Position numbers and translations under genes: made by a program
Assembly (NCBI GenBank): GCA_026983525.1
Contig: JALWHQ010000424.1
Span: forward strand, 1-35,994
Source of the DNA: Anaerolineae bacterium
GTDB taxonomy: Bacteria; Chloroflexota; Anaerolineae; JAADDB01
Length of the DNA: 35,994 nucleotides
Direction: 5' to 3'
In this document: one piece after another, positions 3,310-35,994 of the stretch
Layout: the number at the start of each line of letters is the position of its first letter
How positions within the stretch are numbered: position 1 is the stretch's first letter
The notes under the pieces: model-generated
Told to the model about the DNA's origin: nothing
Database searches by the model: none
The model's input: only the letters and a program-made list of their open reading frames with translations

Positions 3310-4404
3310 GTGACTTCACAGCATCTTGTGCCCGTCATTCTGCTGGGGGTAGGAGGGGTTGGCCGGGCGTTGATCCAGCAGATTTTAGCCCGCCGTGATT
3401 ATCACGTGTCCCAGTATGGAGTGCGCCTGGAAATCGTGGCTGTCGCGGATCGGAATGGCGCCTGTGTTGCCCCACAAGGGTTGAGCGAGAGTGAATTGCG
3501 CACCATTGTCGAACACAAGGCCGGCGGCGGATATCTGGCCGACCTTTCCTTTGGCTATTATCAGCACAATGTGCGCGACATCGTCGACTTGGAGGCCCAT
3601 GCAAACACCATTGTGGTGGACGTCACGGCTACAGATAACACGTTCGATGCCCTTCTTCTGGCTCGCGAACGTCGGGCAGGCATCGTCCTGGCCAACAAGT
3701 TGCCTCTCACCCGTCCCCTTGAGAAGTCATCGCCCTTGTGGCAGTACCCCCGCCTACGCTACGAAACAACCGTGGGCTCGGCCGTTCCGGTGATCACCAC
3801 AGCCCAACGCTTGGCCGCCAGTGGGGAACGGATCGAGCGTGTCCAGGGCAGTTTCAGTGGCACGTTGGGATACATCATGACCGCGATTGAAGAAGGTATG
3901 GCCTTTTCGAAGGCCGTGCTGCGAGCAAAGGAACTGGGCTATACCGAACCCGACCCGCGAGAGGATCTGAGCGGTCGGGACGTCGCCCGTAAGGCGTTGA
4001 TTTTGGCGCGCACCCTGGGGTGGAAGGTTGAAATGGCCGACATCCGGGTGCAGTCCCTCTTCCCCGAAGAGTGGGCTACGTGGCCGCTGGAGGACTTTCT
4101 GGCCGAGTTGCCCGCCCTGGACGCGGACTTCTTCTCCTGGCGAAATGTTTCCCAGGCCCGTCACGAGGCCCTGCGCTATGTCGCCAAACTGACGCCCGAT
4201 CAGATAACGGTGGGGTTGGAGTTCGTGCCCCAAACCTCACCCCTTGGGCGCTTGCAAGGCACGGACAATCTCGTGGAGTTTTACACGGAATATTACGACC
4301 CCCAGCCGCTGGCCCTGCAAGGGCGCGGGGCTGGGGTAGAGGCCACCGCCTCGGGAGTTCTGAGTGACATCATCCAATTGGCCCTCGCGAGTTCATCTGC
4401 CTGA
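3310..4404 (+). CDS. hom: Homoserine dehydrogenase
   Basis: Motifs seen: Rossmann-type LLGVGGVGRALIQQI, ANKLPLT, YETTVGSAVPVI, GSFSGTLGYI and ELGYTEPDPREDLSGRDVARKALILAR, resembling the ThrA/Hom catalytic domain. The ORF opens at 3229. I prefer the GTG at 3310, which has GGAGG at 3294-3298, because the 27 upstream codons look non-protein-like. Confidence 0.8.
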   Translation: MTSQHLVPVILLGVGGVGRALIQQILARRDYHVSQYGVRLEIVAVADRNGACVAPQGLSESELRTIVEHKAGGGYLADLSFGYYQHNVRDIVDLEAHANTIVVDVTATDNTFDALLLARERRAGIVLANKLPLTRPLEKSSPLWQYPRLRYETTVGSAVPVITTAQRLAASGERIERVQGSFSGTLGYIMTAIEEGMAFSKAVLRAKELGYTEPDPREDLSGRDVARKALILARTLGWKVEMADIRVQSLFPEEWATWPLEDFLAELPALDADFFSWRNVSQARHEALRYVAKLTPDQITVGLEFVPQTSPLGRLQGTDNLVEFYTEYYDPQPLALQGRGAGVEATASGVLSDIIQLALASSSA

Positions 4405-8436: not shown

Positions 8437-8886
8437 CTATGAGTCCTCTTCTGCCAACGGCCAGGGGAAGTGTTCCAGGGCCACGCGCGCTTCCTGCAGG
8501 AATTGCACGGCCAGGGGATCTGGATACTCGCCCGCGTACACCACGCGTACGAGCCCGGCATTGATAATCATCTTCGCGCAGGTCAGGCACGGCTGGTGGG
8601 TGACGTAAATGGTCCCGCCCCGCACGCTTACCCCGTGAAGCGCGGCCTGGATGATGGCGTTTTGTTCCGCGTGGAGGGTGCGCACACAATGCCCCCCCAC
8701 CATCAGGTGTCCCACATCATCACAGTGAGGGAGGCCCATGGGGGCGCCGTTGTAGCCGGTGGTGAGGATGCGCTTTTCCTTGACGATGATGGCGCCCACA
8801 TGGGCTCGATCGCAGGTGCTGCGCGTGGCAACTTGAAAGGCAATGCTCATGAAGTATTCATCCCAGGAGGGGCGCTTTTGGCCCAT
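8437..8886 (-). CDS. dCMP deaminase (ComEB / cytidine-deoxycytidylate deaminase family)
   Basis: 149 aa. The start is PSWDEYFM. The zinc motifs HAEQNAI and PCLTCAKMIINAG are present. Confidence 0.85.
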   Translation of the reverse strand: MGQKRPSWDEYFMSIAFQVATRSTCDRAHVGAIIVKEKRILTTGYNGAPMGLPHCDDVGHLMVGGHCVRTLHAEQNAIIQAALHGVSVRGGTIYVTHQPCLTCAKMIINAGLVRVVYAGEYPDPLAVQFLQEARVALEHFPWPLAEEDS

Positions 8887-8907
8887 GTGTTACCTCGACT
8901 TTCGGAA

Positions 8908-9579
8908 TCAAGTACCAAAGAGACGATCGCCCGCGTCGCCCAGACCAGGAACGATGTACCCGGCCGGTGGGTCGCCTGGCTTTTGGGGAGGCGGTGTCAG
9001 GTGATCGTCCAACACGGCAAGGAAGATTTCGACATCTGAGAATCGGCTACGGACAAATTCGACGCCTTCGGGCGCGCCTACCAATCCGAGAAACTTGACC
9101 CGTTTCACCCCCCGTTTTTTGAGAAGGGCAATGGTGGCTGCTGCTGAGCCACCCGTTGCCAGCATAGGATCCAGCACAAGGCCCAGGCTGATGGGCATTT
9201 CTGGGGGTAACTTTTCGTAGTAGGTAATAGGCTGCAAGGTTTCTTCGTCCCGATAGATGCCGACAGGCCAGACGGTAGCATTAGGGACTACGCTGAGCAC
9301 GCCTTCTACTAAACCAAGGCCCGCGCGTAGGATGGGCACTAGGCCCACACGCTCGTCGAGATCGTAGCCCGTAGTTTCGGCAAGAGGCGTACGAACCTGC
9401 CGTGGTTTGATGCGTGCATCATACAGGGCGGCCCATGCAAGCCATGTAGCCACTTCTTGGGCCAGATTTCGGAACTCCCGATGGTGCGTGTTCACGTCGC
9501 GCATCAAGGTTATTTTCGTTTTCGTGAGCGGGTGCTCGCTCACGAAAACGCCGGGCTGGATTTCTCGAACCCATTCCAT
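8908..9579 (-). CDS. upp: Uracil phosphoribosyltransferase
   Basis: The PRPP loop LVLDPMLATGGSA and the C-terminal YIVPGLGDAGDRLFGT are present. The start is taken at the ATG at 9579 (GAGAGGAG upstream) rather than the ORF-track start at 9627. Confidence 0.88.
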   Translation of the reverse strand: MEWVREIQPGVFVSEHPLTKTKITLMRDVNTHHREFRNLAQEVATWLAWAALYDARIKPRQVRTPLAETTGYDLDERVGLVPILRAGLGLVEGVLSVVPNATVWPVGIYRDEETLQPITYYEKLPPEMPISLGLVLDPMLATGGSAAATIALLKKRGVKRVKFLGLVGAPEGVEFVRSRFSDVEIFLAVLDDHLTPPPQKPGDPPAGYIVPGLGDAGDRLFGT

Positions 9580-10006: not shown

Positions 10007-10298
10007 GTCGTCTCTCGCCCTGTGAGGTTTTTGTCCTAACTTCGTGCAGCGCGGAAATTTTCTCAAAAGAGCGGGAAATTGTCAACTTGTCGACTTCCCA
10101 TAAATTGCGGGGAGCACAACCTCATTGTGTCAGAGCGTTGGAGGAGTATGGTTACTGCTTCTTTTCCCAGTCCTTGTTCTTGACCGATATTGGCCGGGGG
10201 AAAGGGCATTTGCGTAACCTTATTTGCCAGTTGTGCGTCTTTTACCACAGCCAAGGGTTGAGATAACGGAAGAGCCGAAGGGAGGGGGACCTCACAAC

Positions 10299-13200
10299 AT
10301 GAAAAAATTTATACCTTTGGGAGACATGAAACATTGGCTTACGTTGGTTCTCCCTCTGGTATTTGTCGGATTGCTGGTAAGCCTCTCGCCTTTTTCCTCT
10401 GATGCGGCCCTGACTCGTGTCCGTTATCTCACGCCTTACCCGACCCCACGCAATAACCCTATGTCATTGGTGCGCTATCCGGGCATCTACGCGGTGGATT
10501 TCTGGTGGGGGTTAGACCCTAACCGCTATCACTTGGTAGGTGCACTCTACAACGGCATCAATTGGTCGCAAGTCGAGACGCAACCCGGTCAATACGACTG
10601 GACGGTCATCGATCAGTGGCTGGACTTCCAACTCTCAACGGGCAAAGTGGGCGGGCTGCCCATTAGCACGTACAATGGCCGATGTTGTGGGGGAATTGGG
10701 GCCCTGCCTCCTTACCTGCGTCAGCCCGATACCCTGATTCAAGTGGCACCTGACTGGTACATCCCCAACTATTGGAGTCCTAAGTACCTTAACGCGTACA
10801 AGAACTTTATCTATGCCTTGGGGCGACGCTATCGGAATGATCCCCGCGTCGAATGGGTGGCCATTGCGACAGGTATATACGGAGAGACGCGCGCGGCGGA
10901 CTGGGTCGATATCGGGGTTCTGCGCAACATGGGTATTACCAGTCAGATGTGGATCGATTATGTGAATCAAGTAGCGGACTGGTATCTTGATGCCTTCAGT
11001 GAAAATGGCCAGTTGAAGAAAGTATTGCTCCAACAGGCTGCGCCTTATACATTCTCTCCGCGGGAGCGCACAGCCATTCAATTGTACGCGGTACAACGGG
11101 GTATTGGAATCTCCTTGAATGCCCTTTTTCCCCAACAGGAAAATGCTTATTATGCGGAGAACTCTGCGTGCAATCTGTGTGGCATTTATGATGTAGTTAC
11201 GGCCTACCAGGAACAAATTCCTCTGGCGTTCGAAACGTATGAAATGTTTTTGTGCACGGAGACGTTCGTTTACTGGGGCATGTTGAATGGCTTGGACAAA
11301 CATCCCACCTACCTTCGGTTGGATGAAGATCTTTTCTATAAGACACCACCAAACGATCCTCCCAAGGACGGTAGCAGAGACAAGGTCGAGAATATTCGCC
11401 TTTTCGGATGGGTCTCCAAATATCTGGGGGTGACCCCTAACACTTCCCCCAGTGCGTGGGTGGCCTTGCGCGAGCACATCTACCCGGATCAAAAGTGCTG
11501 GCAAACGGCACCTGGACCCGCGCCCAATAAGCCCGACTGGGGCAATTACGAATTTTACCTGCAGCAGGATGATGGTGTTCCGGGGGGGCGTACGGTTCCC
11601 GCTACCAACGATCCCAGCGTCGTACACATGCGTTACCATTACAACCCTTACGACCCGAAAATCCCGCCTGGGCGTGAGGGGTGGAGTACGCGACGTACCG
11701 ATCAGGCCAGTGGCAATCCTTACATGTGGTTCAAACTCGACGATCGTTTCCTGTTTGGGGGCTCAAACACCGTTACTGTCACTGTGACGTATCTTGATGT
11801 GGGTACAGACGCCTGGCAATTGCGTTATGATGCAGCCGGAGGCATCGAGAAAGCAGCCGTACCTCGCGGGGCGACGGTTCCTGTTGTCCAAAAACGCAAC
11901 ACAGGTACGTGGCAACAGGCAGTCTTTGTAATACCTGATGCCCGTTTTGCTAATGGGTTGCGTGGGGGGAGCGATTTTGTCATCGATTCCCTCAATGATG
12001 GAGATGAGTACATTCACTTTGTGGACGTTGCACGGCCTGGCGCAAATCCTGGGCCTCCCCCTCCGCCTGATCCGCTTCCTACTCCTACACCGACCTTGTC
12101 CGCGCGTGCCCGCTATCAAGTTCCTTATCTGCCAACGCCTCCAACCTTGGACGGTGATGTAAGCGAATGGCAGGGTATTCCTTCTTTCCGTTTGAATTTG
12201 AACACAGCCTCTTTCGTCTCCATTAAACAACATGCTTTACCTACCGATCCAGATGTTACCCTATGGGTTGGGTGGCGGCCAGAGGGCCTATACGTGGCGG
12301 CTCAGGTTCAGGACGCCAGCCACGTGAGCGATAGTGCAGACATATGGCGAGATGACTCGATAGAAATTGGAATAGATAGTACGGATGATGGCAGGGTCGA
12401 TTGGAATCAGGGAGACCGTCAGTATACCATAGCGATTGATGGTCGCGTGGCACGGCACGGGTTTGCGAGCACGGACCTACAGCCCACTATTCGGAGAACA
12501 TCGGGTGGATGGGTAGTGGAAACGTTAATTCCACATAATAGATTAAACCTCGCACCGCTTTCACAGGGGCAAAAATTAGGTTTCACCTTTGGGTATCACG
12601 ATGATGACGATGGTCAGGATTGGGATACTTATCTCATTTGGCAAGGGAATAGTACGAGTAAGAACACGTACCAGTGGGCATCGCTGTCGCTCGTTACCTG
12701 TACAGGAACGTGTCCTACAGCGACTCCAACTCCTACTCCCACGCCTGTGTCTTCACCATCTCCAACTGCAACTCCTACTGTTGCTGCCTCTCCCACGCCG
12801 ACGCCTACGCCTACCTTGGATCCGGATCGTACACTGCTTTTTGCTTATCGCACCGATATCGGCGTAGATGGGAATTTAGGGGAATGGTCTGTACCCCTTG
12901 CAATCTTGGATGCATCTACGGCCCAGACCGTGCTTAATTCGCCTCCCTCTGCCGATCCGCGTGTGTACTTATACGGAGCCTGGAACGAGACGGGGCTTTA
13001 TCTGGCCGCGCGCATTACCGACACCATGCTCTTTACGGATAGCCTCAAACTTTGGTACGATGACTCTCTGGAGTTCGGCATCGACGGGGCTCACGATCAC
13101 CAAGCCCATTGGGATCAAGATGACCATCAATTCACTATTGGTGTGGATGGGCGTGTAGCCCGCTTTGCAGTGCCCATATCGAGCCTCTCTCCGGCTATCC

Positions 13201-14960
13201 GACGCACGGGTACGGGTTGGGACGTAGAAGTTTGGATTCCTGCGGGTGTGCTGAAGGCTGGCGCATTAGAAAGTGGCAAGGTCATTGGATTTACATTTGC
13301 TTACAACGATGATGATGATGGTGGGGCGCGCGATCATTATCTTGTATGGGCAAGCAACAATACCACTCAAAGCAAAGCCGACTATGGACACATTGTTTTG
13401 GAGGCTCCTTCCTCGCCCGGGACTGTGCCTACGTCAACACCAACCCCGACTCTGGCCGTCTCGCCAACGAATACACCCACGCCTACCCCAACCCCAACAT
13501 CTGTAGGATTACCCACGGCTACACCTACTCCTACTTTATCCCCTACGCCGACGTCCACGCCAACGCCCACGCATACGCCTACTGCTACCGCGACGCCTAC
13601 CCCCACATCCACTCCCACCGCTACGCCGACTTTGACACCAACGCCTTCTCCCACCGCGACTTACACCCCCACACCCACTCATACGCCGACTCCCACGCCT
13701 ACATCGACGCCTACCCCAACACCTACACCTTCACCAACTAACACCCCCACACCCGATCCTGCTCGGATAATAGAGTTCCCATATCGGACCGATGTGGCCG
13801 TAGACGGCGTATTACGGGAGTGGGGGGAAACCTTGGCCACTCTCGATAGGACAACTGCTCGCACGATGAGTACAGTCCCCCCGAGAGATGATGATCCGCG
13901 CGTGGAACTCTATGGGGCCTGGAATGAAGGGGGGCTCTACATCGCAGCCCGAGTGAGCGATGCGGTCACCCAAAGCGATAGCAACGCTCTCTGGCACGAC
14001 GATTCCATCGAGTTAGGCATTGATGGACGTAACGATCACGAGGCTCACTGGGACCAAGACGATCATCAGTTCACCATTGGAGTGGATGGCCGGGTAACGC
14101 GTTTTGCCACGCCCATCGCATCTCTCGTATCGGAAGTGCGTACCACGGAAGGGGGCTGGCTGATGGAAGTATGGATCCCTGCAGAGGTGCTCAACGCGGG
14201 TGCGCTCACCACCGGCCGCATGATCGGGTTTACTTTCGCTTACAACGACGATGACGACGGAGGAAGACGCGACTACTACCTCGTTTGGGCCAGTGATAAT
14301 ACTACCCAGAGCAAAGCGGATTATGGGCATATTTTGTTGGGAGATCCTGTCACCCCTACCCCCACACCAACGCTCACCCCTACACCTACTCCAACCTTTA
14401 CGGCAACGCCCACATATACTCCAACCTCAACGCCGACACCGACGCCCACGAATACGCCCACGCCCACATCGACACCTACATCCACACCTACGTGGACGCC
14501 CACCTATACGCCTACCCCAACATCCACGCCCACTCCTACACCGACACCTACGCCAACACGTACACCTACCCCTACGACCACACCAACTGCGACGTCCACT
14601 CCCACGCCCACTCCCTCGCCCACACCCAACTGTGGAACCAATTGCGAGGTAGTTATCGTAGGACAACTCTTTTTCGACGGAGATGGAAACGGTGTGTATA
14701 ACCTTGGGGACAGGCCCATTCGTTATGAGCGCTTGCTTCTTACGAGGGGACAACTACAGGCAGCGTATGTGACGTTCACAGATTCTGAGGGGCATTTCAC
14801 GTTTCCGCCGGTGCCGGCTGGACGTTACTTGCTGTATCTGCGCCAGCAGGATGGCGGGCTTTTGCTTAGGGTGGTCGATGCTACCTCGGAGCAAGTGGTT
14901 CGGGTTGTGCTCTCCTTGCCATTGACACAACGGACGAGTGTACCTTATATCGCGCGATAG
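10299..14960 (+). CDS. Large secreted multidomain carbohydrate-active protein: signal anchor, glycoside-hydrolase-like TIM-barrel region, three CBM9-like modules with Pro-Thr linkers, and a C-terminal SdrD-B/Cna-B-like fold
   Basis: The ATG at 10299 follows GAAGGGAGGGGG. The N-terminus is [55 protein letters not shown] resembles the GH42/GH35-type motif. The three CBM9-like modules carry W(R/Y/H)DDS(I/L)E(I/F/L)GID and D(Q/R)Q(Y/F)TI...DGRV motifs. The C-terminal [14 protein letters not shown]...[19 protein letters not shown] resembles an SdrD B-like domain. The catalytic family is not certain. Confidence 0.8.
12103..12700 (+). repeat. CBM9-like module, copy 1 (the most diverged) within the large CDS
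   Basis: Motifs seen: [21 protein letters not shown]...[16 protein letters not shown]...[11 protein letters not shown]...[12 protein letters not shown]...[12 protein letters not shown]. Confidence 0.65.
12714..12816 (+). repeat. Pro-Thr linker 1 (low-complexity ACNCCN codon repeats)
   Basis: It encodes [34 protein letters not shown]. Confidence 0.85.
12817..13406 (+). repeat. CBM9-like module, copy 2 (paralogous to copy 3)
   Basis: Motifs seen: [14 protein letters not shown]...[18 protein letters not shown]...[38 protein letters not shown]...[38 protein letters not shown]. Confidence 0.75.
13407..13760 (+). repeat. Pro-Thr linker 2 (about 118 codons)
   Basis: It encodes [32 protein letters not shown]...[26 protein letters not shown]. 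Confidence 0.85.
13761..14346 (+). repeat. CBM9-like module, copy 3 (paralogous to copy 2)
   Basis: Motifs seen: [14 protein letters not shown]...[18 protein letters not shown]...[38 protein letters not shown]...[38 protein letters not shown]. Long identical peptide stretches are shared with copy 2, but synonymous sites differ. Confidence 0.75.
14347..14629 (+). repeat. Pro-Thr linker 3 (about 94 codons)
   Basis: It encodes [42 protein letters not shown]...[10 protein letters not shown]. Confidence 0.85.
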
Positions 14961-17788: not shown

Positions 17789-19217
17789 AGGGCCACGTAC
17801 TCCGTTGCACTGGCTGCGCTTCGTTGTCCTGGCGCTGGATATCGTGTTGGTCAATGTGGCCTTTGGCTTGGCCTACATCATTCGATATCGCTTGCAGTGG
17901 TTTCGCGCGGTCGACCCGGCTTATTACACCGATTTCTCCGCGTACCTTCCCTTTGCCGCTCTCCTCACTTTGCTCCTGATTTCTGCCTACGCGATGGAGG
18001 GACTGTACGGGGAACAGCGAGGGCGCCGCTTCTGGGATGACTTCTACGGTATTTTCAACGGCACGATGACGGGTCTGGGCATCACGATAATCATCGTCTT
18101 CTTCTGGCGGCCGCTCTTTTATTCCCGCCTGATTTTTGCTTACACGGCTGTCCTCGTCATCACCCTGTTGAGTATAGAACGGATTATTTTGCGCGCGGTG
18201 TTGGCGTGGTTGCGCAAACGAGGGGTAGGGGTGGCGCGTGTGGTCGTGGTGGGCGCGGGTGAACTGGGGCGCATGGTCATGCGCAACGTGGTGGCCAATC
18301 CTGACTTGGGATACAAAGTGGTCGGCTTCCTGGATGATAACCCGGGGAAGACCGCGGATATCGGTCCCATTCGTGCCCTGGGGAGCATCGATCGGCTTCC
18401 CGAGGTCCTGAAGACAGAAGATATCGATGAGGTGATTATCACGTTGCCGTGGCATTCGTATCGGCGCATTATGCGGGTAATGGCACAAAGCGAGCGCGCG
18501 GGCGTGCGGGCGCGGGTCGTCCCCGACCTTTTCCAGTTGCGGTTGGGACGCGTCGAGGTGGACACTCTGAACGGTATTCCACTTATTGGTCTCCGCGAAA
18601 TGCAATTGTCCAAACACCAACTGATCATCAAGCGGGGCATGGACGTGGTCCTTTCCGCCTTCGCTCTCATTGCCCTGTTGCCCCTTATGGGGCTCATCGC
18701 CTTGGCCATCAAGGTGGATTCACCCCACGGTCCGGTTCTCTTCCGTCAAGTGCGTATCGGCAAGAACGGCCGTCCCTTCCACCTGTACAAGTTCCGTTCC
18801 ATGATTCCCGAGGCCGACCTGATCAAGCAACATCTGAAGGACCTGAACGAGGCCGATGGTCCTCTGTTCAAAATTCGGAACGATCCTCGCCTGACGCGCG
18901 TGGGCCGCATTTTGCGCCGTTTTAGCCTGGACGAATTGCCCCAACTGGTCAACGTGTTGCGCGGGGAGATGAGCCTGGTGGGGCCCCGGCCCGCACTGCC
19001 CGAGGAAGTGGCCCATTACGAACCCTGGCACCACAAGCGCCTCACCGTCACCCCCGGCATTACGGGGCTGTGGCAAATCAGTGGCCGCAGCGATCTCAGT
19101 TTCGATGAGATGATGCTTTTGGATGTGTATTACGTGGAGAACTGGTCACTCTTGCTGGATTTGCGCATTTTGCTCCTCACAATCCCTAAAGTTATCTTAG
19201 GGGAAGGGGCCTATTGA
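17781..19217 (+). CDS. Polyprenyl-phosphate glycosyl-1-phosphate transferase (WbaP/EpsB-type exopolysaccharide priming enzyme)
   Basis: It has an N-terminal TM helix bundle, a Rossmann-like VVVVGAGELG, and the C-terminal sugar-transferase motifs GPVLFRQVRIGKNGRPF.LYKFRSM and LDELPQLVNVLRGEMSLVGPRP. It overlaps the preceding GT4 gene by 8 nt. Confidence 0.88.
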   Translation: MNKGPRTPLHWLRFVVLALDIVLVNVAFGLAYIIRYRLQWFRAVDPAYYTDFSAYLPFAALLTLLLISAYAMEGLYGEQRGRRFWDDFYGIFNGTMTGLGITIIIVFFWRPLFYSRLIFAYTAVLVITLLSIERIILRAVLAWLRKRGVGVARVVVVGAGELGRMVMRNVVANPDLGYKVVGFLDDNPGKTADIGPIRALGSIDRLPEVLKTEDIDEVIITLPWHSYRRIMRVMAQSERAGVRARVVPDLFQLRLGRVEVDTLNGIPLIGLREMQLSKHQLIIKRGMDVVLSAFALIALLPLMGLIALAIKVDSPHGPVLFRQVRIGKNGRPFHLYKFRSMIPEADLIKQHLKDLNEADGPLFKIRNDPRLTRVGRILRRFSLDELPQLVNVLRGEMSLVGPRPALPEEVAHYEPWHHKRLTVTPGITGLWQISGRSDLSFDEMMLLDVYYVENWSLLLDLRILLLTIPKVILGEGAY

Positions 19218-27120: not shown

Positions 27121-27220
27121 CGCGTGTCTCCGTGCCAGGATGGACGATAGACCATGGACGATGGATGGCCGTGGCCCATCGTCTATCTGTGTCCATGTAC
27201 ACTTACGTTTGTTCTCGCAT

Positions 27221-27982
27221 TTATTCTACCACAGGGGGGCGACGGGCAATGACAAAGGCACAGTTACCATCGCGCAAGCGCTGGCGGGCCTCCACGGCCA
27301 CAAGCAACCGGATCAAGGGCAAGAGAAGCAGGGTCCGCCCCACGCGATATCGGCTCCACTTCCACAGTTCCCAGGCCAGGGTGCCCCAGCGCCCGTGGGT
27401 GTACACCGTGCGTTCCACCCTCAAGCCCGCGCGCTGCATTTTCGCTTCCAACTCTCCTCGCCGGTATCCCTCGCGCGCGTGGAGCGGGTTCTTCAGGTGA
27501 TCCAGGTCGAAGCGGCGGAACCAGTGCACCTGGGGGGTAAGGGGCGTGTGCACGGCGAGCCAGCCACCCGGGCGCAGGGCCTGGGCCATGTGGGCCAGTG
27601 CCTTTTCGTCCTCTTCGATATGCTCGAGCACGTCGATGGAGTAGATGAGGTCGTAAGCATCGGGTGGCAGCGAAGCGGTCAAGTCACCCTCCACGAAGTG
27701 CAGGTTGTCCAGCCGCGAGCGCCGGGCCTCCGCCTCGGCACGGGCCACGACATCGGGGCGGTTGTCCAGCCCCGTCACTTGAAGGTGGGGAAACGCGCGC
27801 GCCAGGTAGAACGCGTGCTTCCCCGTACCACACCCTGCGTCGAGAACGGTCTTGGTCTCCGGGGTGATGAGGGGAACGACCAGGCGGAGGAACCAGCGAA
27901 ACCGGATGGCTTCCCCCACGTGGTAATCAAGACGGCGGGCCAGTTGCCAGTGCCATGTGCGCAGCGTTGTCATGGCCCCCAT
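27221..27982 (-). CDS. Class I SAM-dependent methyltransferase (Methyltransf_11/25-like; does not resemble RsmG)
   Basis: SAM motif I VLDAGCGTGKHAFYLA and the acidic loop LDNRPD are present, followed by DLIYSIDVLEHI. The start is taken at the ATG at 27982, behind a perfect AAGGAGG. The ORF-track start at 28126 would overlap parA by about 109 nt. Confidence 0.78.
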   Translation of the reverse strand: MGAMTTLRTWHWQLARRLDYHVGEAIRFRWFLRLVVPLITPETKTVLDAGCGTGKHAFYLARAFPHLQVTGLDNRPDVVARAEAEARRSRLDNLHFVEGDLTASLPPDAYDLIYSIDVLEHIEEDEKALAHMAQALRPGGWLAVHTPLTPQVHWFRRFDLDHLKNPLHAREGYRRGELEAKMQRAGLRVERTVYTHGRWGTLAWELWKWSRYRVGRTLLLLPLIRLLVAVEARQRLRDGNCAFVIARRPPVVE

Positions 27983-27991
27983 GGGTGCGTT

Positions 27992-28029
27992 AGCCTCCTT
28001 ATGCAGCCTGAGCCTCCTTATGCAGCCTG
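27992..28029. repeat. Perfect 19-bp tandem duplication at the parA stop / methyltransferase SD junction
   Basis: AGCCTCCTTATGCAGCCTG occurs at 27992-28010 and again at 28011-28029. On the minus strand each copy reads CAGGCTGCATAAGGAGGCT, which is a stop codon followed by an SD sequence. Confidence 0.9.
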
Positions 28030-30903: not shown

Positions 30904-32136
30904 GTGAACTGGATGAAAATCTGGGCTATTATCCGACATGAGTACGTTACCAACATCCGCCGCACGGGGTTCATTGTGATGACGTTGATTGTGCCCGCGG
31001 TGGGCCTGTTGTCCTTGGGCCTCAGTGCGTTTGTGGGAAAATCCACGGTCGCCGTGCTGGATCGCCTGTTCGGCCCCTCGTCTCAAACCATCGCGGTGGT
31101 GGACGAATCGGGGTACTTCCAGCCCATCCTGCCCGATTTTCGGGAGAGGTTTGTGCTCTATCCCGACCGGGCGGCCGCGCGCGCGGCCGTTGACGAGGGC
31201 GACGTCAGCGCCGCTCTCTTCATTCCAGGCGACTACGTGCAAACGGGGAAGGTGTACGTCTACTCTACCGGGGGGGATATAGCCCTCACCACCCTGAGTG
31301 AATCGGAGTCCGTGCGCAGTTTCTTCATTGCCCACCTGGCCCGCAACTACGTGCCCGATGATATTCTTGTCCGCCTGAGTGACCCGGTGTCCCACTTCGT
31401 CCCTGTAGAGGAACAGGGGCCTGCCCCGGGTCCTTTGGGCTTTGTGTTCACATTCCTCATCCCTTATTTCTTCGCCATCCTGCTCATCATCAGCGTCTTC
31501 ATCAGTTCGGGCTATTTGCTGCAAGGGATTGCTGAGGAGAAGGAGAACCGTCTCGTCGAATTGGTACTTTCCTCGGTTTCTCCCCTGGAGTGGTTCGTGG
31601 GCAAGGTCATTGGCCTGGGCGCGGTAGGGTTGACACAATTGCTCATCTGGGTGATCAGCGTTGGGGCCATTTCCGGTGGTGCGGTGGTTCTGGTGGCCAT
31701 GAGCATCCCCTCTCTGCCCGTGCACAAATTGCTCATCCTGCCGGTTTTCTACCTCCTGGGATATGTGCTCTACGCGGTGCTCTACGCGGGCCTGGGCGCG
31801 CTTGGCACCAACCACCGTGAGTCGCAACAGGTAGCCGGGATCATTTCTTTCATTGCCGCGGTGCCCTTCATGGTGTCTGGTGTGCTCTTCACCAATCCTA
31901 ACTCGCCCATCATCCGCGCGCTCACCTTCTTCCCCCTCACCGCGGCCAGCATGATCATGCTCCGCCTCCCCATGTCCGACGTGCCCACGACGGACATGGG
32001 CATCAGTCTCATCAGCCTGGTAGTGAGCATTCCCCTCGCTGCCTGGCTGGGGGCCAAACTCTTCCGTATGGGCATCCTCATGTACGGCAAGCGCCCCAGT
32101 TTCAAGGAAGTGTGGGCCGCGCTGCGGGCGGCGTAG
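30904..32136 (+). CDS. ABC-2 family transporter permease
   Basis: An N-terminal TM helix is followed by a soluble loop of about 150 aa and then five hydrophobic helices. It lies directly downstream of the ATPase gene. The GTG at 30904 is 5 nt after AGGAGGA. The TTG at 30886 and the ATG at 30913 are alternatives. Confidence 0.75.
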   Translation: MNWMKIWAIIRHEYVTNIRRTGFIVMTLIVPAVGLLSLGLSAFVGKSTVAVLDRLFGPSSQTIAVVDESGYFQPILPDFRERFVLYPDRAAARAAVDEGDVSAALFIPGDYVQTGKVYVYSTGGDIALTTLSESESVRSFFIAHLARNYVPDDILVRLSDPVSHFVPVEEQGPAPGPLGFVFTFLIPYFFAILLIISVFISSGYLLQGIAEEKENRLVELVLSSVSPLEWFVGKVIGLGAVGLTQLLIWVISVGAISGGAVVLVAMSIPSLPVHKLLILPVFYLLGYVLYAVLYAGLGALGTNHRESQQVAGIISFIAAVPFMVSGVLFTNPNSPIIRALTFFPLTAASMIMLRLPMSDVPTTDMGISLISLVVSIPLAAWLGAKLFRMGILMYGKRPSFKEVWAALRAA

Positions 32137-32180
32137 CCAACGTCGAGACAGGACTCACCATCTACGAGGAGGAGGAGTAT

Positions 32181-32245
32181 AATACCTAATACCCGATACC
32201 CAGTACCCGATATCGAGGTCAGGTATCAGGTATCGGGTATCGGGG
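32181..32245. repeat. Heptamer-array hairpin element E1 (unit RATACCC / GGGTATY)
   Basis: The sequence reads AATACCT AATACCC GATACCC AGTACCC GATATCG aggtc AGGTATC AGGTATC GGGTATC GGGG. Positions 32192-32244 fold into a stem of about 23 bp with 2 mismatches and a 7-nt loop. It lies between the ABC permease gene and prs. Confidence 0.85.
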
Positions 32246-32283
32246 CCTGAACATTTCTTGCCTTTCACCTTGGAGGCCCTGCC

Positions 32284-33237
32284 GTGATGTACGGAGAACT
32301 CGCCCTGTTTTCAGGCACCGCAAACCGACCGCTGGCCGAAGCCGTTGCCGACTACCTGGGTATCGAACTCAGCGAGGCGGATGTGTTCCAGTTCCCCAAC
32401 ACGAACACGTTCTGTCGCCTGCGCCAGAGTGTGCGGGGCAAGGACGTGTTCATCATTCAGCCTACGTCGCCCCCCACCAACGACAACCTGATGGAGTTGC
32501 TGGTCTTCCTGGACACGGTGCGTCGCGATTCGGCCGCGCGCGTGACCGCAGTGGTGCCCTATTACGGCTACGGGCGCACGGACAAAAAGGACCAGCCGCG
32601 CGTGCCCATCACGGGCCGCCTGGTGGCCGACCTGATCACCGTCGCGGGCGCGGATCGCTTCCTCTCCTTCGACCTGCACGCGGGCCAGATTCAGGGTTTC
32701 TTCACCATTCCCGTGGACGAACTCAGCGCCGTGCCCATCATCCTCGACTATATCGAGCAGCAAGCCTGGCCCAACCTGGTCGTCGTGGCGCCGGACATCG
32801 GCGCGGTGCGCCGCAGCCGCAACTTCGCCGAGCGCCTCCATGTGCCCCTGGCGATCATTGAGAAGCGCCGCGCCCTGAGCGGGGAGAGCACCCACATCTA
32901 CAATTTGATCGGGGATGTCAAAGGCGCGGTTGCCCTATTAGTGGACGATGAAATCGACACCGCGGGCACTATCGTCAATGCCGCAGAATTTGTCATGGAA
33001 CAGGGGGCCAAAGAGGTCATCGCCTGCGCCACCCATCCCATCTTTTCCCCGCCCGCGCCCGAGCGCCTGGAGGCCAGTTGCCTTTCCCAGATCATCGTCA
33101 CCAACACCGTCCACGTAAAGGAACACGTGCGCGAAATGCTGGGCGAGCGCCTTGTCGTCCTCAATGTAGGCGACCTGTTGGGCGAGGTCATCCGCCGCAT
33201 TCACGTGGGCGTTTCCGTCGGCGCACTATTCGAATAG
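32284..33237 (+). CDS. prs: Ribose-phosphate pyrophosphokinase (PRPP synthetase)
   Basis: Motifs seen: LFSGTANRPLAEAVADYLG, VPYYGYGRTDKK, FDLHAGQIQGFF and the PRPP-binding loop LLVDDEIDTAGT. GGAGG lies at 32271-32275, upstream of the GTG at 32284 and the ATG at 32287. Confidence 0.92.
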   Translation: MMYGELALFSGTANRPLAEAVADYLGIELSEADVFQFPNTNTFCRLRQSVRGKDVFIIQPTSPPTNDNLMELLVFLDTVRRDSAARVTAVVPYYGYGRTDKKDQPRVPITGRLVADLITVAGADRFLSFDLHAGQIQGFFTIPVDELSAVPIILDYIEQQAWPNLVVVAPDIGAVRRSRNFAERLHVPLAIIEKRRALSGESTHIYNLIGDVKGAVALLVDDEIDTAGTIVNAAEFVMEQGAKEVIACATHPIFSPPAPERLEASCLSQIIVTNTVHVKEHVREMLGERLVVLNVGDLLGEVIRRIHVGVSVGALFE

Positions 33238-33251
33238 AGTGCAAATTGCAC

Positions 33252-33320
33252 AGTCCAAAGTGAAAAGGGAAGGCTCCTCCACATTTTCACTTTGGACTTT
33301 TCACTTTTCACTTTTTTCAC
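33252..33320. repeat. Heptamer-array hairpin element E2 (unit AGTGAAA / TTTCACT); possible prs terminator
   Basis: A perfect 15-bp stem pairs AGTCCAAAGTGAAAA (33252-33266) with TTTTCACTTTGGACT (33284-33298), with a 17-nt loop. Further TTTCACT units and a T-rich tail extend to 33320. Confidence 0.85.
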
Positions 33321-33333
33321 GTTGAGGTGCCCA

Positions 33334-35208
33334 ATGACACACAAACGAGTTCGTCCCTACGGCCTGTGGGATAGCCCCCTCTCGCCCCGCATGATGGCCT
33401 ATGGCCTGCGCCTGACCGATGTGTGCTGGGATACGGACGGTCGGACGTTGGGCTGGGTGGAGGGGCGCTCCGGGCAGAACGTGGTGGTCGTGCAGCAGGA
33501 GGGAGAGGCGCCGCGCGATCTGTTCGCCGAGTACTCCGCGCGCGGGGGCGTCGGCTATGGCGGGGGCGACTTCACCCTGTCCCACGGCTTCGCCTACTTC
33601 GTGCACGAGGGGCGCATTTACCGGCAGCGCCTGGCCGCGGGCGTCGCACGGCCCATCACCCCCCAGTTCGGCGCCGCGGCTTCCCCCACCGTCTCCCGCG
33701 ACGGTCGCTGGCTTATGTACGTCCACACCTACGAGCGCACCGACGTCATCGCGATTGTGGACAGCGAGGGGCAGCAGTGGCCCCAGCGCCTGGTCAGCGG
33801 CGCGGACTTCTACATGCAACCCGTGTGGCATCCTCGCGGCACGCACATCGCCTGGATCGAGTGGGATCATCCCAACATGCCCTGGGATGGCACGCGGCTT
33901 TACCTGGGCCGTGTGGAGGGAGAGCCGCCGCGCCTGGTGGAACACACGTTGATTGCCGGGGACGACGATGTTCCCGTGTTCCAGCCCGCGTTCTCCTCGG
34001 ACGGCCGGTATTTGAGTTACATCATTACCGAGGGTGAGTGGGATCGGCTGGTTCTGTACGATGTGGAGAGTGGACGCGCGCGCGTGCTTCTGGAGGGCGA
34101 GGGGTTGGTGCTGGCCGCGCCGGCGTGGGTGCAGGGATTGCGCGTGTACGGCTGGCGCGGGGATGGCCGCGCCCTCTACGTTCGGCGCAACGACAGGGGC
34201 TTCGCTTCCCTCCTGCGCGTGTGGGTGGAGGACGGCAGGGTGGAGGATGTGCCCCTGGGCGCGTACACGTGGGTCGACCAAGTAACCCCCGCGCCGGAGG
34301 GGGATCGGGTGGCCTTCATTGCCTCGGCCTCGCGTGTGCCCGCGCGTGTGGTGCTGTGGGAAGATGGCACGTTCCGCATCCTGCGGCGAAGCACCACCGA
34401 GAGCATCCCCCTCGACGACCTGGCCGAGCCCGTGCCCATCCAGTGGCAGGCACCCGATGGCACCACCGTGCACGCGCTGTACTATCCCCCCACCAACAGC
34501 CGTTTCGTGGGCGAAGGGCTGCCCCCCGCCATCGTGAACATCCACGGTGGGCCCACGTCGCAGCGGGTGGCGAATTACAACGCGGACGCGCAGTTCTTCA
34601 CCAGTCGGGGGTGGGCCTACGTGGAGATGAATTACCGTGGCAGCACGGGCTACGGGCGCTCGTACATGACCGCGCTGCGCGAGCACTGGGGAGAGTACGA
34701 CGTGGAGGATGCGGTGGGCGCGGCGCGGGCCCTGGCCGAACAAAAGTTGGCCGATCCCAAGCGCCTGGTTATCAAGGGGGGAAGTGCGGGGGGCTACACG
34801 GTGCTCAACGTGCTCGTTCGGCATCCCGGCGTCTTCAAGGCCGGCATTTGCCTCTACGGTGTGACGAACCTCTTCACCCTCGCGGCCGAAACGCACAAGT
34901 TCGAGGAACGCTACCTGGATTCCCTGGTCGGCCTCTTGCCCCAGGCCGCGGCCCGCTATCGCGAGTGGTCCCCCATCTTTCACGCCGACCGCATACGCGA
35001 CCCGATAGCCATCTTTCAGGGCGCGGAGGACAAAGTCGTGCCCCCCAACCAGGCCGAAAGCCTGGTCGCCGTGCTCAAGGCCAACCGGGTTCCGCACATC
35101 TACCGTGTCTACGAAGGGGAAGGCCACGGCTGGCGCCGGGCAGAAACCATCGAGGCCTACTACAAGGACGTGCTCGCCTTCCTGCGGGACTATGTCTTGT
35201 TTGCGTAG
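33334..35208 (+). CDS. S9-family serine peptidase (prolyl oligopeptidase / acylaminoacyl-peptidase-like) with an N-terminal beta-propeller
   Basis: The catalytic motifs are GGSAGGYT (Ser), GAEDKVVPPNQ (Asp) and EGEGHGW (His), with propeller-like repeats upstream. The ATG at 33334 follows GAGGTG. The ORF track opens at 33292, inside repeat E2. Confidence 0.85.
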   Translation: MTHKRVRPYGLWDSPLSPRMMAYGLRLTDVCWDTDGRTLGWVEGRSGQNVVVVQQEGEAPRDLFAEYSARGGVGYGGGDFTLSHGFAYFVHEGRIYRQRLAAGVARPITPQFGAAASPTVSRDGRWLMYVHTYERTDVIAIVDSEGQQWPQRLVSGADFYMQPVWHPRGTHIAWIEWDHPNMPWDGTRLYLGRVEGEPPRLVEHTLIAGDDDVPVFQPAFSSDGRYLSYIITEGEWDRLVLYDVESGRARVLLEGEGLVLAAPAWVQGLRVYGWRGDGRALYVRRNDRGFASLLRVWVEDGRVEDVPLGAYTWVDQVTPAPEGDRVAFIASASRVPARVVLWEDGTFRILRRSTTESIPLDDLAEPVPIQWQAPDGTTVHALYYPPTNSRFVGEGLPPAIVNIHGGPTSQRVANYNADAQFFTSRGWAYVEMNYRGSTGYGRSYMTALREHWGEYDVEDAVGAARALAEQKLADPKRLVIKGGSAGGYTVLNVLVRHPGVFKAGICLYGVTNLFTLAAETHKFEERYLDSLVGLLPQAAARYREWSPIFHADRIRDPIAIFQGAEDKVVPPNQAESLVAVLKANRVPHIYRVYEGEGHGWRRAETIEAYYKDVLAFLRDYVLFA

Positions 35209-35218
35209 GGAGCCCATC

Positions 35219-35326
35219 GAAGAGTGAAGAGTGAAAAGTGAAAAGTGAAAAGTGAATATCCGTGGGGTGACGCCACCTGACTCGTTCCTGCATATGTTCA
35301 CTTTTCACTTTGCACTTCGCACTTCG
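35219..35326. repeat. Heptamer-array hairpin element E3 (same AGTGAAA / TTCACTT unit as E2)
   Basis: The left arm (35223-35257) is AGTGAAG AGTGAAA x3 AGTGAAT. The right arm (35297-35324) is TTCACTT x2 TGCACTT CGCACTT. A perfect 14-bp core pairs 35243-35256 with 35297-35310, with a 40-nt loop. Confidence 0.85.
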
Positions 35327-35337
35327 TATTTCCCCCT

Positions 35338-35366
35338 TTGACGCCCCCCTGCTTCTGGACTATAAT
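35338..35366 (+). promoter_or_regulatory. Near-consensus sigma70-type promoter, TTGACG-17 nt-TATAAT
   Basis: The -35 TTGACG lies at 35338-35343 and the -10 TATAAT at 35361-35366, with exactly 17 nt between them. It lies about 310 nt upstream of the PFOR start, in the same orientation. Confidence 0.5.
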
Positions 35367-35515
35367 CCAGACCGAACAGGTGAGGAAGCGTGCTTCCCCG
35401 CGCCCGCTGTTCGGCAGCGGCGAGGGAGGTTCGCACAATGACGTGCCCCTGCTTTCTCCGTCGCTATGCTTCCCCACACCACGGGCAGGAGCATTGAGCG
35501 CGCGGCAAAAAAGGC

Positions 35516-35662
35516 GATACGTGAAGGCGTGATGCGTGAAGGCGTGATGCGTAATGCGTAATGCGTGATGCGTGATGTGAAACTTCGTGTTGTGTAAGGC
35601 ATTATGTATAAGGGTCGATCCGTGGATGGCGTGTTACGCATTACGCATTACGAATTACGGAT
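35516..35662. repeat. Heptamer-array hairpin element E4 (unit RATGCGT / TACGCAT), preceded by a 15-mer duplicated in tandem
   Basis: GATACGTGAAGGCGT (35516-35530) and GATGCGTGAAGGCGT (35531-35545) are followed by GATGCGT AATGCGT AATGCGT GATGCGT. The right arm (35635-35662) is TACGCAT x2 TACGAAT TACGGAT. A perfect 16-bp core pairs 35550-35565 with 35637-35652. The element ends 3 nt before the PFOR SD sequence. Confidence 0.85.
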
Positions 35663-35677
35663 TTAGGAGGCAAAACG

Positions 35678-35994
35678 ATGGCCGATAAACGGAGCGAGTT
35701 TCCCTACCCGGGGATTCCGACGACGTCGGATGGGACGGGAACGGTGGTTTGGGTCGAGACGAATGTGACGCAGGGCGCGTGCGCGTACCCCATCACGTCC
35801 TCGACGAACATGGGCGTGGAGTACGCGCGCGCCGTAGCCAACGGCCAGCGCAACCTCTGGGGCGAGCCGCTGGTCTTCATGGAGCCCGAGTCGGAGCACT
35901 CGTCCGCGTCCGCGGCGGAGGGCTTCGCGCTCGCGGGCGGCCGCGTGACCAACTTCACCTCCGGGCAGGGCCTGGTGCTGATGAAGGAGGTCCT
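35678..35994 (+). CDS. Pyruvate:ferredoxin (flavodoxin) oxidoreductase / 2-oxoacid:ferredoxin oxidoreductase, N-terminal fragment; runs off the right edge
   Basis: Hand translation from the ATG at 35678 (AGGAGG at 35665-35670) gives MADKRSEFPYPGIPTTSDGTGTVVWVETNVTQGACAYPITSSTNMGVEYARAVANGQRNLWGEPLVFMEPESEHSSASAAEGFALAGGRVTNFTSGQGLVLMKEV. The YPITSS...E.ESEHSAASA..G pattern is typical of the PFOR/OFOR alpha domain. It is absent from the ORF track, which appears to list only ORFs complete within the window. Confidence 0.75.
   Translation, partial: MADKRSEFPYPGIPTTSDGTGTVVWVETNVTQGACAYPITSSTNMGVEYARAVANGQRNLWGEPLVFMEPESEHSSASAAEGFALAGGRVTNFTSGQGLVLMKEV

Follow-up and report, generated by a model that had tools for sequence, protein, structure and literature searches.

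Results

Paired Heptanucleotide Arrays in Consecutive Intercistronic Gaps

We analyzed a stretch of 35,994 nucleotides from an Anaerolineae bacterium (GenBank assembly GCA_026983525.1, contig JALWHQ010000424.1), referred to below as the window. Toward its end, genes on the + strand lie in the order ABC ATPase, ABC-2 permease, PRPP synthetase and S9 peptidase, followed by a promoter-like site, a leader of about 300 nt, and the gene for PFOR α. Four elements are interspersed among them, i.e., E1 (between the permease and PRPP synthetase), E2 (between PRPP synthetase and the S9 peptidase), E3 (after the S9 peptidase) and E4 (within the leader). The elements are heptanucleotide simple sequence repeat (SSR) arrays, mostly arranged as convergent pairs, with (N7)n, a spacer, and then the reverse complement of (N7)n. 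The initial annotation, made from the sequence alone, had described tandem 7-mers with reverse-complement arms at these four sites, and Tandem Repeats Finder, an exact-period scan, shuffles, and folds all agreed with it.

Tandem Repeats Finder placed period-7 arrays at 32182-32244, 33284-33315, 35219-35256, 35297-35326, 35516-35577, and 35634-35663, and at its threshold returned no further period-7 arrays in the window outside the E1–E4 sites. In an exact-period scan (periods 4–12), exact runs in the intergenic gaps occurred at period 7 alone and at the E1–E4 sites alone. The three gaps contained seven arrays, against a mean of 0.001 in 1000 shuffles, and the four elements are a genuine family of heptamer-built hairpins. 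An 83.7-kb metagenome scaffold from ENA containing the window sequence (L001) and a Logan contig were 99.97% identical to the window, with four single-nucleotide polymorphisms (SNPs) in 13.7 kb and no indel. Because the three independent assemblies agree base for base within the elements, an assembly artefact was ruled out.

The arms of E1–E4 all read on the + strand. E1 has a left arm at 32178-32212 (TATAATA CCTAATA CCCGATA CCCAGTA CCCGATA; unit RATACCC) and a right arm at 32219-32245 (TCAGGTA TCAGGTA TCGGGTA TCGGGG), with a Shine-Dalgarno (SD) sequence, GGAGG, 24 nt downstream and then the PRPP synthetase ATG at 32287. In E2, the left arm (33236-33268; (T)AG AGTGCAA ATTGCAC AGTCCAA AGTGAAA AG) is in 7-nt register all the way from the PRPP synthetase stop codon at 33236, so that both arms have about five units; the extent of 33252-33320 given previously was correct for the right arm and too short for the left. 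The right arm (33284-33320; TTTTCAC TTTGGAC TTTTCAC TTTTCAC TTTTTTC AC) does mirror the variant unit AGTCCAA as TTGGACT, as had been reported, and on its 3' side lie an SD, GAGG, and the S9 peptidase ATG (33334). E3 begins 10 nt past the S9 peptidase stop codon (35208), with a left arm at 35219-35259 (GAAGAGT twice, GAAAAGT three times, and GAATAT) and a right arm at 35294-35326 (ATGTTCA CTTTTCA CTTTGCA CTTCGCA CTTCG), and the identity between its arms is maximal beside the loop and falls outward. E4 has a left arm of about nine GATGCGT or AATGCGT units, with two 8-nt variants GAAGGCGT (35516-35577), and a right arm (35634-35663; TTACGCA twice, TTACGAA, and TTACGGA) that stops 2–3 nt short of the SD sequence, AGGAGG, of the PFOR α gene (ATG at 35678).

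The arms of E1, E2, E3, and E4 (22, 35, 30, and 27 nt) are 82%, 83%, 87%, and 89% complementary, respectively, and their longest perfect stem cores are 12, 15, 15, and 17 bp; the earlier figure of 15 bp was right for E2, and those of 10, 14, and 16 bp for the others were not. Folded as + strand RNA, the four elements gave −35.6, −32.2, −45.8, and −62.0 kcal/mol, with z scores against dinucleotide shuffles of −3.9, −4.3, −5.2, and −5.7. Their arms may be of unequal size, i.e., 2.3 versus 5 units in the fold of E2 and 9 versus 4.5 units in E4. Left arms start 0–39 nt after a stop codon and right arms finish 2–6 nt before a clear SD, E1 being the exception, and thus the arrays take up nearly all of the DNA between functional signals.

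The series extends in both directions. The initial annotation saw no arrays in the first 32 kb, which was wrong by one: a scan at a lower threshold detected a weaker element, E0 (27136-27196, − strand; unit family ACGATGG), which reads ATGGACG ATAGACC ATGGACG ATGGATGG, then the 7-nt spacer ccgtggc, then CCATCGT CTATCTG TGTCCAT (fold −31.9 kcal/mol, z −3.0). E0 lies between two co-directional genes of the − strand: the methyltransferase gene stops at 27221 and the ParB gene starts at 27120. The four elements reported within 3.5 kb are real sites, but the series continues with three more loci in the next 4.6 kb of L001. The first of these, about 1.6 kb past the window end (L001 15328-15470), is E5, a GGTTGAA/TTCAACC inverted pair between the PFOR α and β genes, whose first three units supply the last six or so codons and the TGA stop of PFOR α. 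The second, at L001 17487-17528, is an array of six ATCTCCA-type units (42 nt) lying in frame inside the maf coding sequence (CDS); it encodes the peptide ISNPQSPILQSPIS and adds 6 residues to a loop by comparison with B. subtilis Maf (PDB 1ex2). The third, at L001 17794-17950, comprises two adjacent, mutually non-complementary arrays with TATAAT between them, AGTGCAA/AGTGAAA and then AATCTCC grading into AATACCC, of which the latter (17894-17950) runs straight up to the start codon (ATG) for uracil-DNA glycosylase without an intervening SD. The AATACCC-type arrays at 32178-32183 (E1) and at L001 ~17893 both open with the hexamer TATAAT, which could be a −10 box or merely a unit variant. Because single, in-CDS, and non-complementary arrays exist, the heptamer array is the primary object and the hairpin its commonest arrangement, not the sole one. 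The unit families include RATACCC, AGTGAAA, GATGCGT, and ACGATGG, with GGTTGAA on the scaffold extension.

Rapid Turnover and Shared Units among Relatives

Named homologs of the S9 peptidase came from Anaerolineae, Chloroflexi, and Thermoflexus, and by this measure the host is evidently an Anaerolineae-like member of the Chloroflexota. We compared the orthologous regions of six relatives (identities given are those of the S9 peptidase). There was no array in the orthologous gaps of L003 (88%), L281 (71%), or L006 (68%). L004 (77%) has at the E1 position, between the permease and PRPP synthetase genes, an inverted pair (8790-8971; ACAATGG ATGATGG ACGATGG ... CCATCGT CCATCGT CTATCGT) whose unit differs from that of E1 and whose 130-nt spacer contains TGTATAAT. 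L280 (76%) has a TATCCAA array 5' of an SD. At the E2 position, L282 and L283 (72%) both carry a GATTGAA array and a degenerate inverse partner, and L282 has in addition two single ATCACGY arrays right upstream of SDs. Array turnover at any given gap is, to judge from these gaps, fast.

Two side observations concern the same relatives. In L003, the gap between the PRPP synthetase and S9 peptidase genes has a short imperfect palindrome (653-700; GGGACGATAGACC / GTCCATTGTCC) resembling 1.5 units of the ACGATGG family, which could be the seed or a remnant of an array. In L283, runs of N at ~4042-4141 and 12553-12652 lie exactly where L282 has its ATCACGY arrays; short-read assembly and scaffolding seem to be disrupted by heptamer arrays.

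The L282 and L283 scaffolds were obtained from two samples of one study, with an identity of 99–99.5%. The left arrays of their gaps between the PRPP synthetase and S9 peptidase genes differ by an exact 14-nt (two-unit) indel, with 5.7 and 3.7 GATTGAA units, respectively, and the right arms by a 5-nt indel plus substitutions. The two-unit indel is direct evidence, in a relative, for unit-wise length variation, i.e., slippage, and bears out the proposal that such elements are slippage-prone and length-variable.

Identical unit families recurred at non-orthologous gaps in different species: ACGATGG in E0 and L004, GCGTGAT/ATCACGC in E4 and twice in L282, GRTTGAA in E5 and L282, and AATAYCC in E1, L001 17894-17950, and L280. 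This recurrence, and the position of E0 5 kb upstream on the other strand, spoke against local spread, which had been offered as the reason for the clustering. GC skew or proximity to an origin was also rejected as its cause, the window having no skew feature.

Recurrence at non-orthologous gaps (ACGATGG at E0 and in the permease–PRPP synthetase gap of L004; GCGTGAT at E4 and twice in L282) and a REPIN-like hairpin form and extragenic location are features that might be expected of non-autonomous mobile elements of the REPIN or MITE (miniature inverted-repeat transposable element) type, i.e., single-stranded DNA hairpins moved by a transposase encoded elsewhere, with the heptamer periodicity a property of the element ends. 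We nevertheless consider such an origin very unlikely. The elements have no conserved core, fixed length, flanking direct repeats, or target-site duplication; elements with the same unit (E2 and E3; E1 and L001 17894-17950) lack common flanks; unit number differs between arms; spacers range from 7 to 130 nt, with no common sequence; and certain arrays have no partner or one of an unrelated unit. Probes of 1.5 units matched nothing besides the arrays, no transposase was seen in the window, and no RAYT (IS200/IS605-like Y1 transposase) was found among the called genes of L001 or the scanned window open reading frames (ORFs), representing 43 kb of genome. Of the signs of mobility, neither target-site duplications nor shared flanks were present, nor dispersed single- or 1.5-unit copies beyond chance.

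The comparison with REP, BIME, and REPIN sequences, which are extragenic palindromes of enterobacteria and Pseudomonas (PMC3733652, PMC3116915), gave a similar picture. Like REP/BIME, the elements studied here are imperfect palindromes in intercistronic operon gaps that would give stem-loops when transcribed. However, REP sequences consist of one conserved 20–40-nt sequence per genome with a GTAG or CGTC tag and a RAYT, whereas here the units are of 7 nt, their number is variable, and there is no common sequence: the architecture is common to the elements, but the unit differs by locus.

A Strong Arm Polarity of AGTGAAA Pairs

An exact scan for (AGTGAAA)3 in 185,579 species genomes returned at least 120 stretches, with 0.95 Mb of loci; the figures that follow are for the loci listed. 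Hosts among the matches listed were Bacteroidota, Acidobacteriota, Vulcanimicrobiota, Fibrobacteria, Planctomycetota, Nitrospirota, Desulfobacterota, and Bacillota, as well as Chloroflexota (Promineifilaceae, Leptofilum, and Anaerolineae), a few cyanobacteria, and one archaeon. The loci contained 275 period-7 arrays, compared with 21 of period 6 and 23 of period 8, and represented 79 canonical units. Where two arrays were neighbors, 36 pairs were inverted complements and 19 direct (gaps of at least 3 nt), or 18 and 8, respectively, when the spacer exceeded 30 nt; other units forming inverted pairs included AATGCAC, CGAAACT, and AGTGGTC.

Among inverted pairs of the AGTGAAA type, the order was (AGTGAAA)n-spacer-(TTTCACT)n in 28 cases and the reverse in one. 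Because this order is identical read from either strand, the polarity is not a search bias; units without A/T skew had no arm polarity (3:3). AGTGAAA pairs lay in 19 co-directional, 4 convergent, and 3 divergent contexts, and an ORF pointing toward a pair often terminated at or within the array. A transcript from either side meets UGA in each reading frame in the space of three units, then the stem-loop, and then a U-rich 3' side, and on these sequence features the order is the layout of a putative bidirectional intrinsic terminator.

Arrays are abundant in this lineage in particular. A scan of JGI metagenomes with the S9 peptidase gave a best match of 66% identity and no orthologous gaps, and the 80 loci that it yielded were kept as background. 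Around these S9 homologs (673 kb), there were 16 period-7 arrays, or 0.024/kb, compared with 0.21/kb at the same threshold in the window plus its extension. In IMG/VR, (AGTGAAA)3 occurred in 53 stretches, a composition-matched permutation in 9, and (GATACCC)3 in 10, so that AGTGAAA is favored about 5-fold but is not unique.

Heptamer Arrays as Candidate Slippage Products and RNA Stem-Loops

Our preferred reading, to which we attach moderate confidence as a whole, is that these are slippage-built arrays that would act, when transcribed, as intercistronic or untranslated-region (UTR) stem-loops. Replication slippage, one 7-nt unit per step, would build and resize them, as the indel between L282 and L283 shows for a relative. 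They would extend until they meet a selected sequence, i.e., a stop codon on one side and an SD or promoter on the other, and we propose that this is why they fill intercistronic gaps. Since turning one and the same duplex around converts an array into its reverse complement, growth from a short palindrome could proceed both ways, and two-sided growth of this kind would give a long imperfect hairpin with unequal arms. The unequal arms, the stop codon supplied by E5, the maf array, and the non-complementary arrays all favor growth in situ over the insertion of an element of fixed form. Any one element is probably under weak selection and turns over fast.

Since all flanking genes are co-directional, the pairs are presumably transcribed, and in RNA they would form very stable stem-loops. 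REP stem-loops of E. coli can stabilize upstream mRNA or attenuate read-through. E0, E1, E2, E3, and E5, lying right after stop codons, are most likely intercistronic or 3'-end hairpins, which would be partial terminators or barriers to 3' exonucleases, like REP/BIME in enterobacterial operons; E4 would be a stem-loop in the PFOR mRNA leader, ending just short of the ribosome-binding site. The terminator or mRNA-stabilizing role suggested in the initial annotation is plausible as judged from predicted structure.

The predicted structures resemble intrinsic terminators in that a stem-loop follows directly on a stop codon and elements of the AGTGAAA class have an A-rich 5' side and a U-rich 3' side on either strand. 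The clearest terminator-like form appears to be E2, a 15-bp stem followed by the U-rich UUUUCACUUUUCACUUUUUU, the outer U-rich units of its right arm being left unpaired in the minimum-energy fold. They differ in that intrinsic terminators have a short GC-rich stem of 5–20 bp, a short loop, and then a U run, whereas these stems are long and AU-rich, with U mostly inside the stem, and in that E4 is located in a leader rather than at a 3' end. E2 and E3 have a GC-rich core hairpin in the spacer; as a general seed for arrays, this was dropped after the spacers of 31 other AGTGAAA pairs had been tested (see below).

We also compared the folding of the two strands. In E4 the sense strand was much the more stable (−62.0 kcal/mol, with 12 G·U among 57 pairs, versus −30.6 for antisense). 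The preference was moderate in E3 (−43.0 versus −35.9) and E5 (−43.9 versus −36.3), and absent in E1 (−34.6 versus −35.8) and E2 (−23.0 versus −26.0). For E4 this is suggestive of selection on RNA structure; for the elements in general the case for such selection is weak. A sense-strand G·U bias as proof of selection at the RNA level was dropped, being absent from E1, E2, and 19 pairs in other phyla.

Several results weigh against slippage-built arrays with a role in RNA. Folding did not favor the sense strand among 19 inverted pairs in co-directional contexts of other phyla (9 versus 10, p = 0.98), and the G·U pairs of E4 could go back to one or two transitions that slippage then copied along the array. 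A consensus terminator scan gave 4 matches, compared with 5.0 expected from shuffles, and E1, E3, E4, and E5 are without a canonical U-tract. In 31 AGTGAAA pairs from other genomes, spacers had 10% lower GC than their loci and were barely more structured than shuffles, so that there is no general GC-rich terminator core. The hairpin of L283 (−24.9 kcal/mol, z −2.5) is lost in L282 (−14.3 kcal/mol, z +1.8), and thus pairing is not strictly maintained. The copy number of E1–E4 was equal in the window and the two other assemblies, which differ by only 4 SNPs in 13.7 kb. Finally, plain slippage of arbitrary 7-mers leaves unexplained the recurrence of the same units at non-orthologous gaps.

Some of these results would also fit a function-free mutational by-product, with the arrays as "weeds" of 7-nt slippage or of fold-back template switching, tolerated wherever a stop codon, SD, or promoter is spared, and the hairpins incidental. 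Rapid turnover, the loss of the hairpin from one of two 99%-identical strains (L282), the lack of sense-strand bias over phyla, and the lack of structure in single arrays on fold prediction are all consistent with this, as are the running of arrays into coding sequence (E5 in PFOR α, and maf), their abutting of SDs, which is expected from simple filling of free space, and the fact that neither Rehm 2015 nor MacGregor 2015 assigned a function to heptamer arrays. However, the 28:1 arm polarity of AGTGAAA pairs requires selection or a directional mechanism; inverted pairs outnumber direct ones at both spacings examined (18 versus 8, and 36 versus 19); a unit repertoire common to several species is unexpected under undirected slippage; and E4 shows strong strand asymmetry. 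We think a by-product without function on the unlikely side.

Structures at the DNA level, such as cruciforms, slipped DNA, or quadruplexes acting on replication, supercoiling, or recombination, would likewise show no sense-strand bias over phyla; cruciform extrusion is possible for long inverted repeats that are nearly perfect, and the GGGAATC arrays of Xanthomonas form G-quadruplexes (Rehm 2015). The units here are not G-tract repeats, however; E4 pairs well only via G·U/G·T wobbles on one strand; and placement follows ribosome-binding sites and the ends of genes rather than features of replication, in a window where no GC-skew feature was seen. We regard a role of this kind as extremely improbable, and return to stem-loops formed in RNA as the preferred reading.

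Neighboring Signals and Features

The promoter-like site (TTGACG-17 nt-TATAAT; 35338..35366, + strand) separates E3 from E4, has 11/12 consensus matches, and was the one notable result of the consensus scan for promoters and terminators. Were it active, the upstream unit would have E3 at its 3' end, and the leader of the PFOR mRNA would contain E4. The leader stretch 5' of E4 (35373-35515) has another hairpin (ccgaacagg...cgctgttcgg), with no Rfam match. Rfam gave no match at gathering thresholds over the whole window, and under permissive settings over 32100-35720 gave only chance-level matches to miRNA precursors (E 0.1–0.9), so that no family could be assigned to the elements.

Two further repeats lie elsewhere in the window. 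At 27992-28029 there is a perfect 19-nt tandem duplication of AGCCTCCTTATGCAGCCTG; on the − strand both copies have TAA followed by AAGGAGG, which means that the junction of the parA stop and the methyltransferase SD has been duplicated. A 1578-aa ORF at 10224-14960 has three CBM9 carbohydrate-binding domains with long (Thr-Pro)n linkers between them, and it explains every tandem-repeat row of period 6, 12, or 24 (12.7–14.6 kb).

Discussion

The class of bacterial heptanucleotide repeats to which the elements belong has been described before. In Xanthomonas there are 183–186 GGGAATC arrays per genome, 89–93% of them intergenic, including 70–75 convergent pairs that are potential stem-loops; the pairs are transcribed, lie near the end of the upstream ORF, and are mostly between co-directional genes (Rehm et al. 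2015, PLoS One, PMC4692102). Array length varies between species there while the single or paired type is usually kept, formation of G-quadruplexes was demonstrated, and no function was found (PMC4692102). E0–E4, E5, and 36 pairs from other phyla likewise have the same heptamer on opposite strands, close together, intergenic, and able to form a stem-loop. They share with the Xanthomonas arrays tandem 7-nt units in a mostly intergenic location, with arrays on opposite strands close together. Convergent heptamer pairs having already been reported, the idea of an undescribed family fails in kind. There are differences: a single G-rich unit, able in principle to form G-quadruplexes, is used throughout the Xanthomonas genome, whereas here there are at least five unrelated families without G-tracts within 16 kb (RATACCC, AGTGAAA, GATGCGT, GGTTGAA, and ACGATGG, none within one mismatch of GGGAATC); arrays there are on average ~160 nt from the downstream ORF, whereas these reach the SD; and the hosts are Gammaproteobacteria and Chloroflexota, respectively.

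The arrays also conform to long SSRs (LSSRs) as defined by Mrazek 2007, i.e., head-to-tail units of 1–11 nt that are longer than chance (as summarized in PMC4679880 and PMC4692102). Both the predominance of heptamers among long SSRs, reported in 2007, and the idea of polymerase slippage are cited in the same two papers. Our period-7 arrays of 3–9 units are far above those of shuffled gaps, and LSSR-type variation in unit number was seen in a related species (L282 versus L283), but not at E1–E4 among three near-identical assemblies.

The initial annotation knew of heptamer arrays from heterocystous cyanobacteria only, a view that was too narrow: in addition to Xanthomonas (PMC4692102), they occur in Beggiatoaceae, a Chromatiaceae, and five Bacteroidetes (PMC4679880). 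The cyanobacterial STRR (short tandemly repeated repetitive) heptanucleotides, known from a report on Calothrix PCC 7601 as cited in PMC4692102, resemble those described here in being tandem, extragenic heptamers with several families per genome and a repertoire common to related species. They differ in being described as direct arrays, whereas ours are mostly inverted pairs, and in their host, a heterocystous cyanobacterium rather than a member of the Chloroflexota; in Nostoc, there are only few paired heptamer arrays (PMC4692102). The window unit consensuses differ, by inspection, from STRR1–3 in every rotation and on both strands. The STRR units are reportedly CCCCAGT (STRR1), TTGGTCA (STRR2), and CAACAGT (STRR3), from work by Mazel and colleagues in 1990. 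When 268 cross-phylum arrays from the listed loci were compared with STRR1, STRR2, and STRR3, 0, 5, and 4, respectively, were within one mismatch and none was identical. For the Chloroflexota, we found no paper on heptamer arrays.

The remaining known system comprises TAACTGA arrays of 2–6 units lying a few nt from start codons in marine Beggiatoaceae, a Chromatiaceae, some Cyanobacteria, and five Bacteroidetes (MacGregor 2015, PMC4679880). They occur as 169 direct sets and one indirect set, with SDs usually absent, and have been proposed to be protein-binding tracks controlling initiation, no function having been assigned (PMC4679880). Our arrays are similar in their proximity to start codons, their scattered phylogenetic distribution, and units containing stop codons; they differ in that TAACTGA arrays have a single dominant unit and usually lack an SD, whereas a clear SD follows right after the arrays here. 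The heptamers of Nostoc recF/recO offer another precedent for a regulatory reading (Pradhan 2022).

By analogy, the arrays of the window might be tracks of sites bound by a regulatory protein or one with affinity for single-stranded nucleic acid, such as a cold-shock-domain, S1, or CsrA-like protein, that controls downstream translation initiation or transcription, with pairing modulating access to the sites. Right arms or single arrays do finish 2–6 nt before an SD or at a start codon (E2, E4, and E5; L001 17894-17950; L282 4075-4145 and 12550-12600; L280 1-30), and a small repertoire of units common to species at different genes is what recognition sites would show, in addition to the two precedents just cited. 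Against this, there are at least five unrelated unit families in 16 kb, no candidate protein was identified, arrays are also found right after stop codons and in a CDS, and copy number is freely variable. We therefore find binding tracks a doubtful explanation.

Simple slippage accounts neither for the unit repertoire common to several species nor for the arm polarity. Both would be explained if the arrays were seeded or propagated by a sequence-specific process, i.e., an enzyme or protein-recognition system acting on a limited set of 7-mers specific to the lineage: it would place ACGATGG, GCGTGAT, GRTTGAA, and AATAYCC at non-orthologous gaps of species only 72%–77% identical in a housekeeping-type protein, and would give (AGTGAAA)n-loop-(TTTCACT)n a single polarity over many phyla. 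We think such a process unlikely, although if it did operate, paired arrays would represent a class of hairpin element, regulatory or mobile, that is widespread and has gone unrecognized.

Bacterial heptanucleotide arrays have been on record for decades and are still without an accepted origin or function. The present locus adds a Chloroflexota lineage, with paired inverted arrays in consecutive intercistronic gaps of ordinary housekeeping genes, and provides three testable handles: near-identical strains differ in unit number, species have a small repertoire of units in common at different loci, and AGTGAAA pairs show a strong arm polarity. Because arrays can add stop codons or short in-frame insertions, they affect gene calling in metagenome-assembled genomes. 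The AGTGAAA arm polarity, found across phyla, points to a role of the RNA 3'-end or terminator type.

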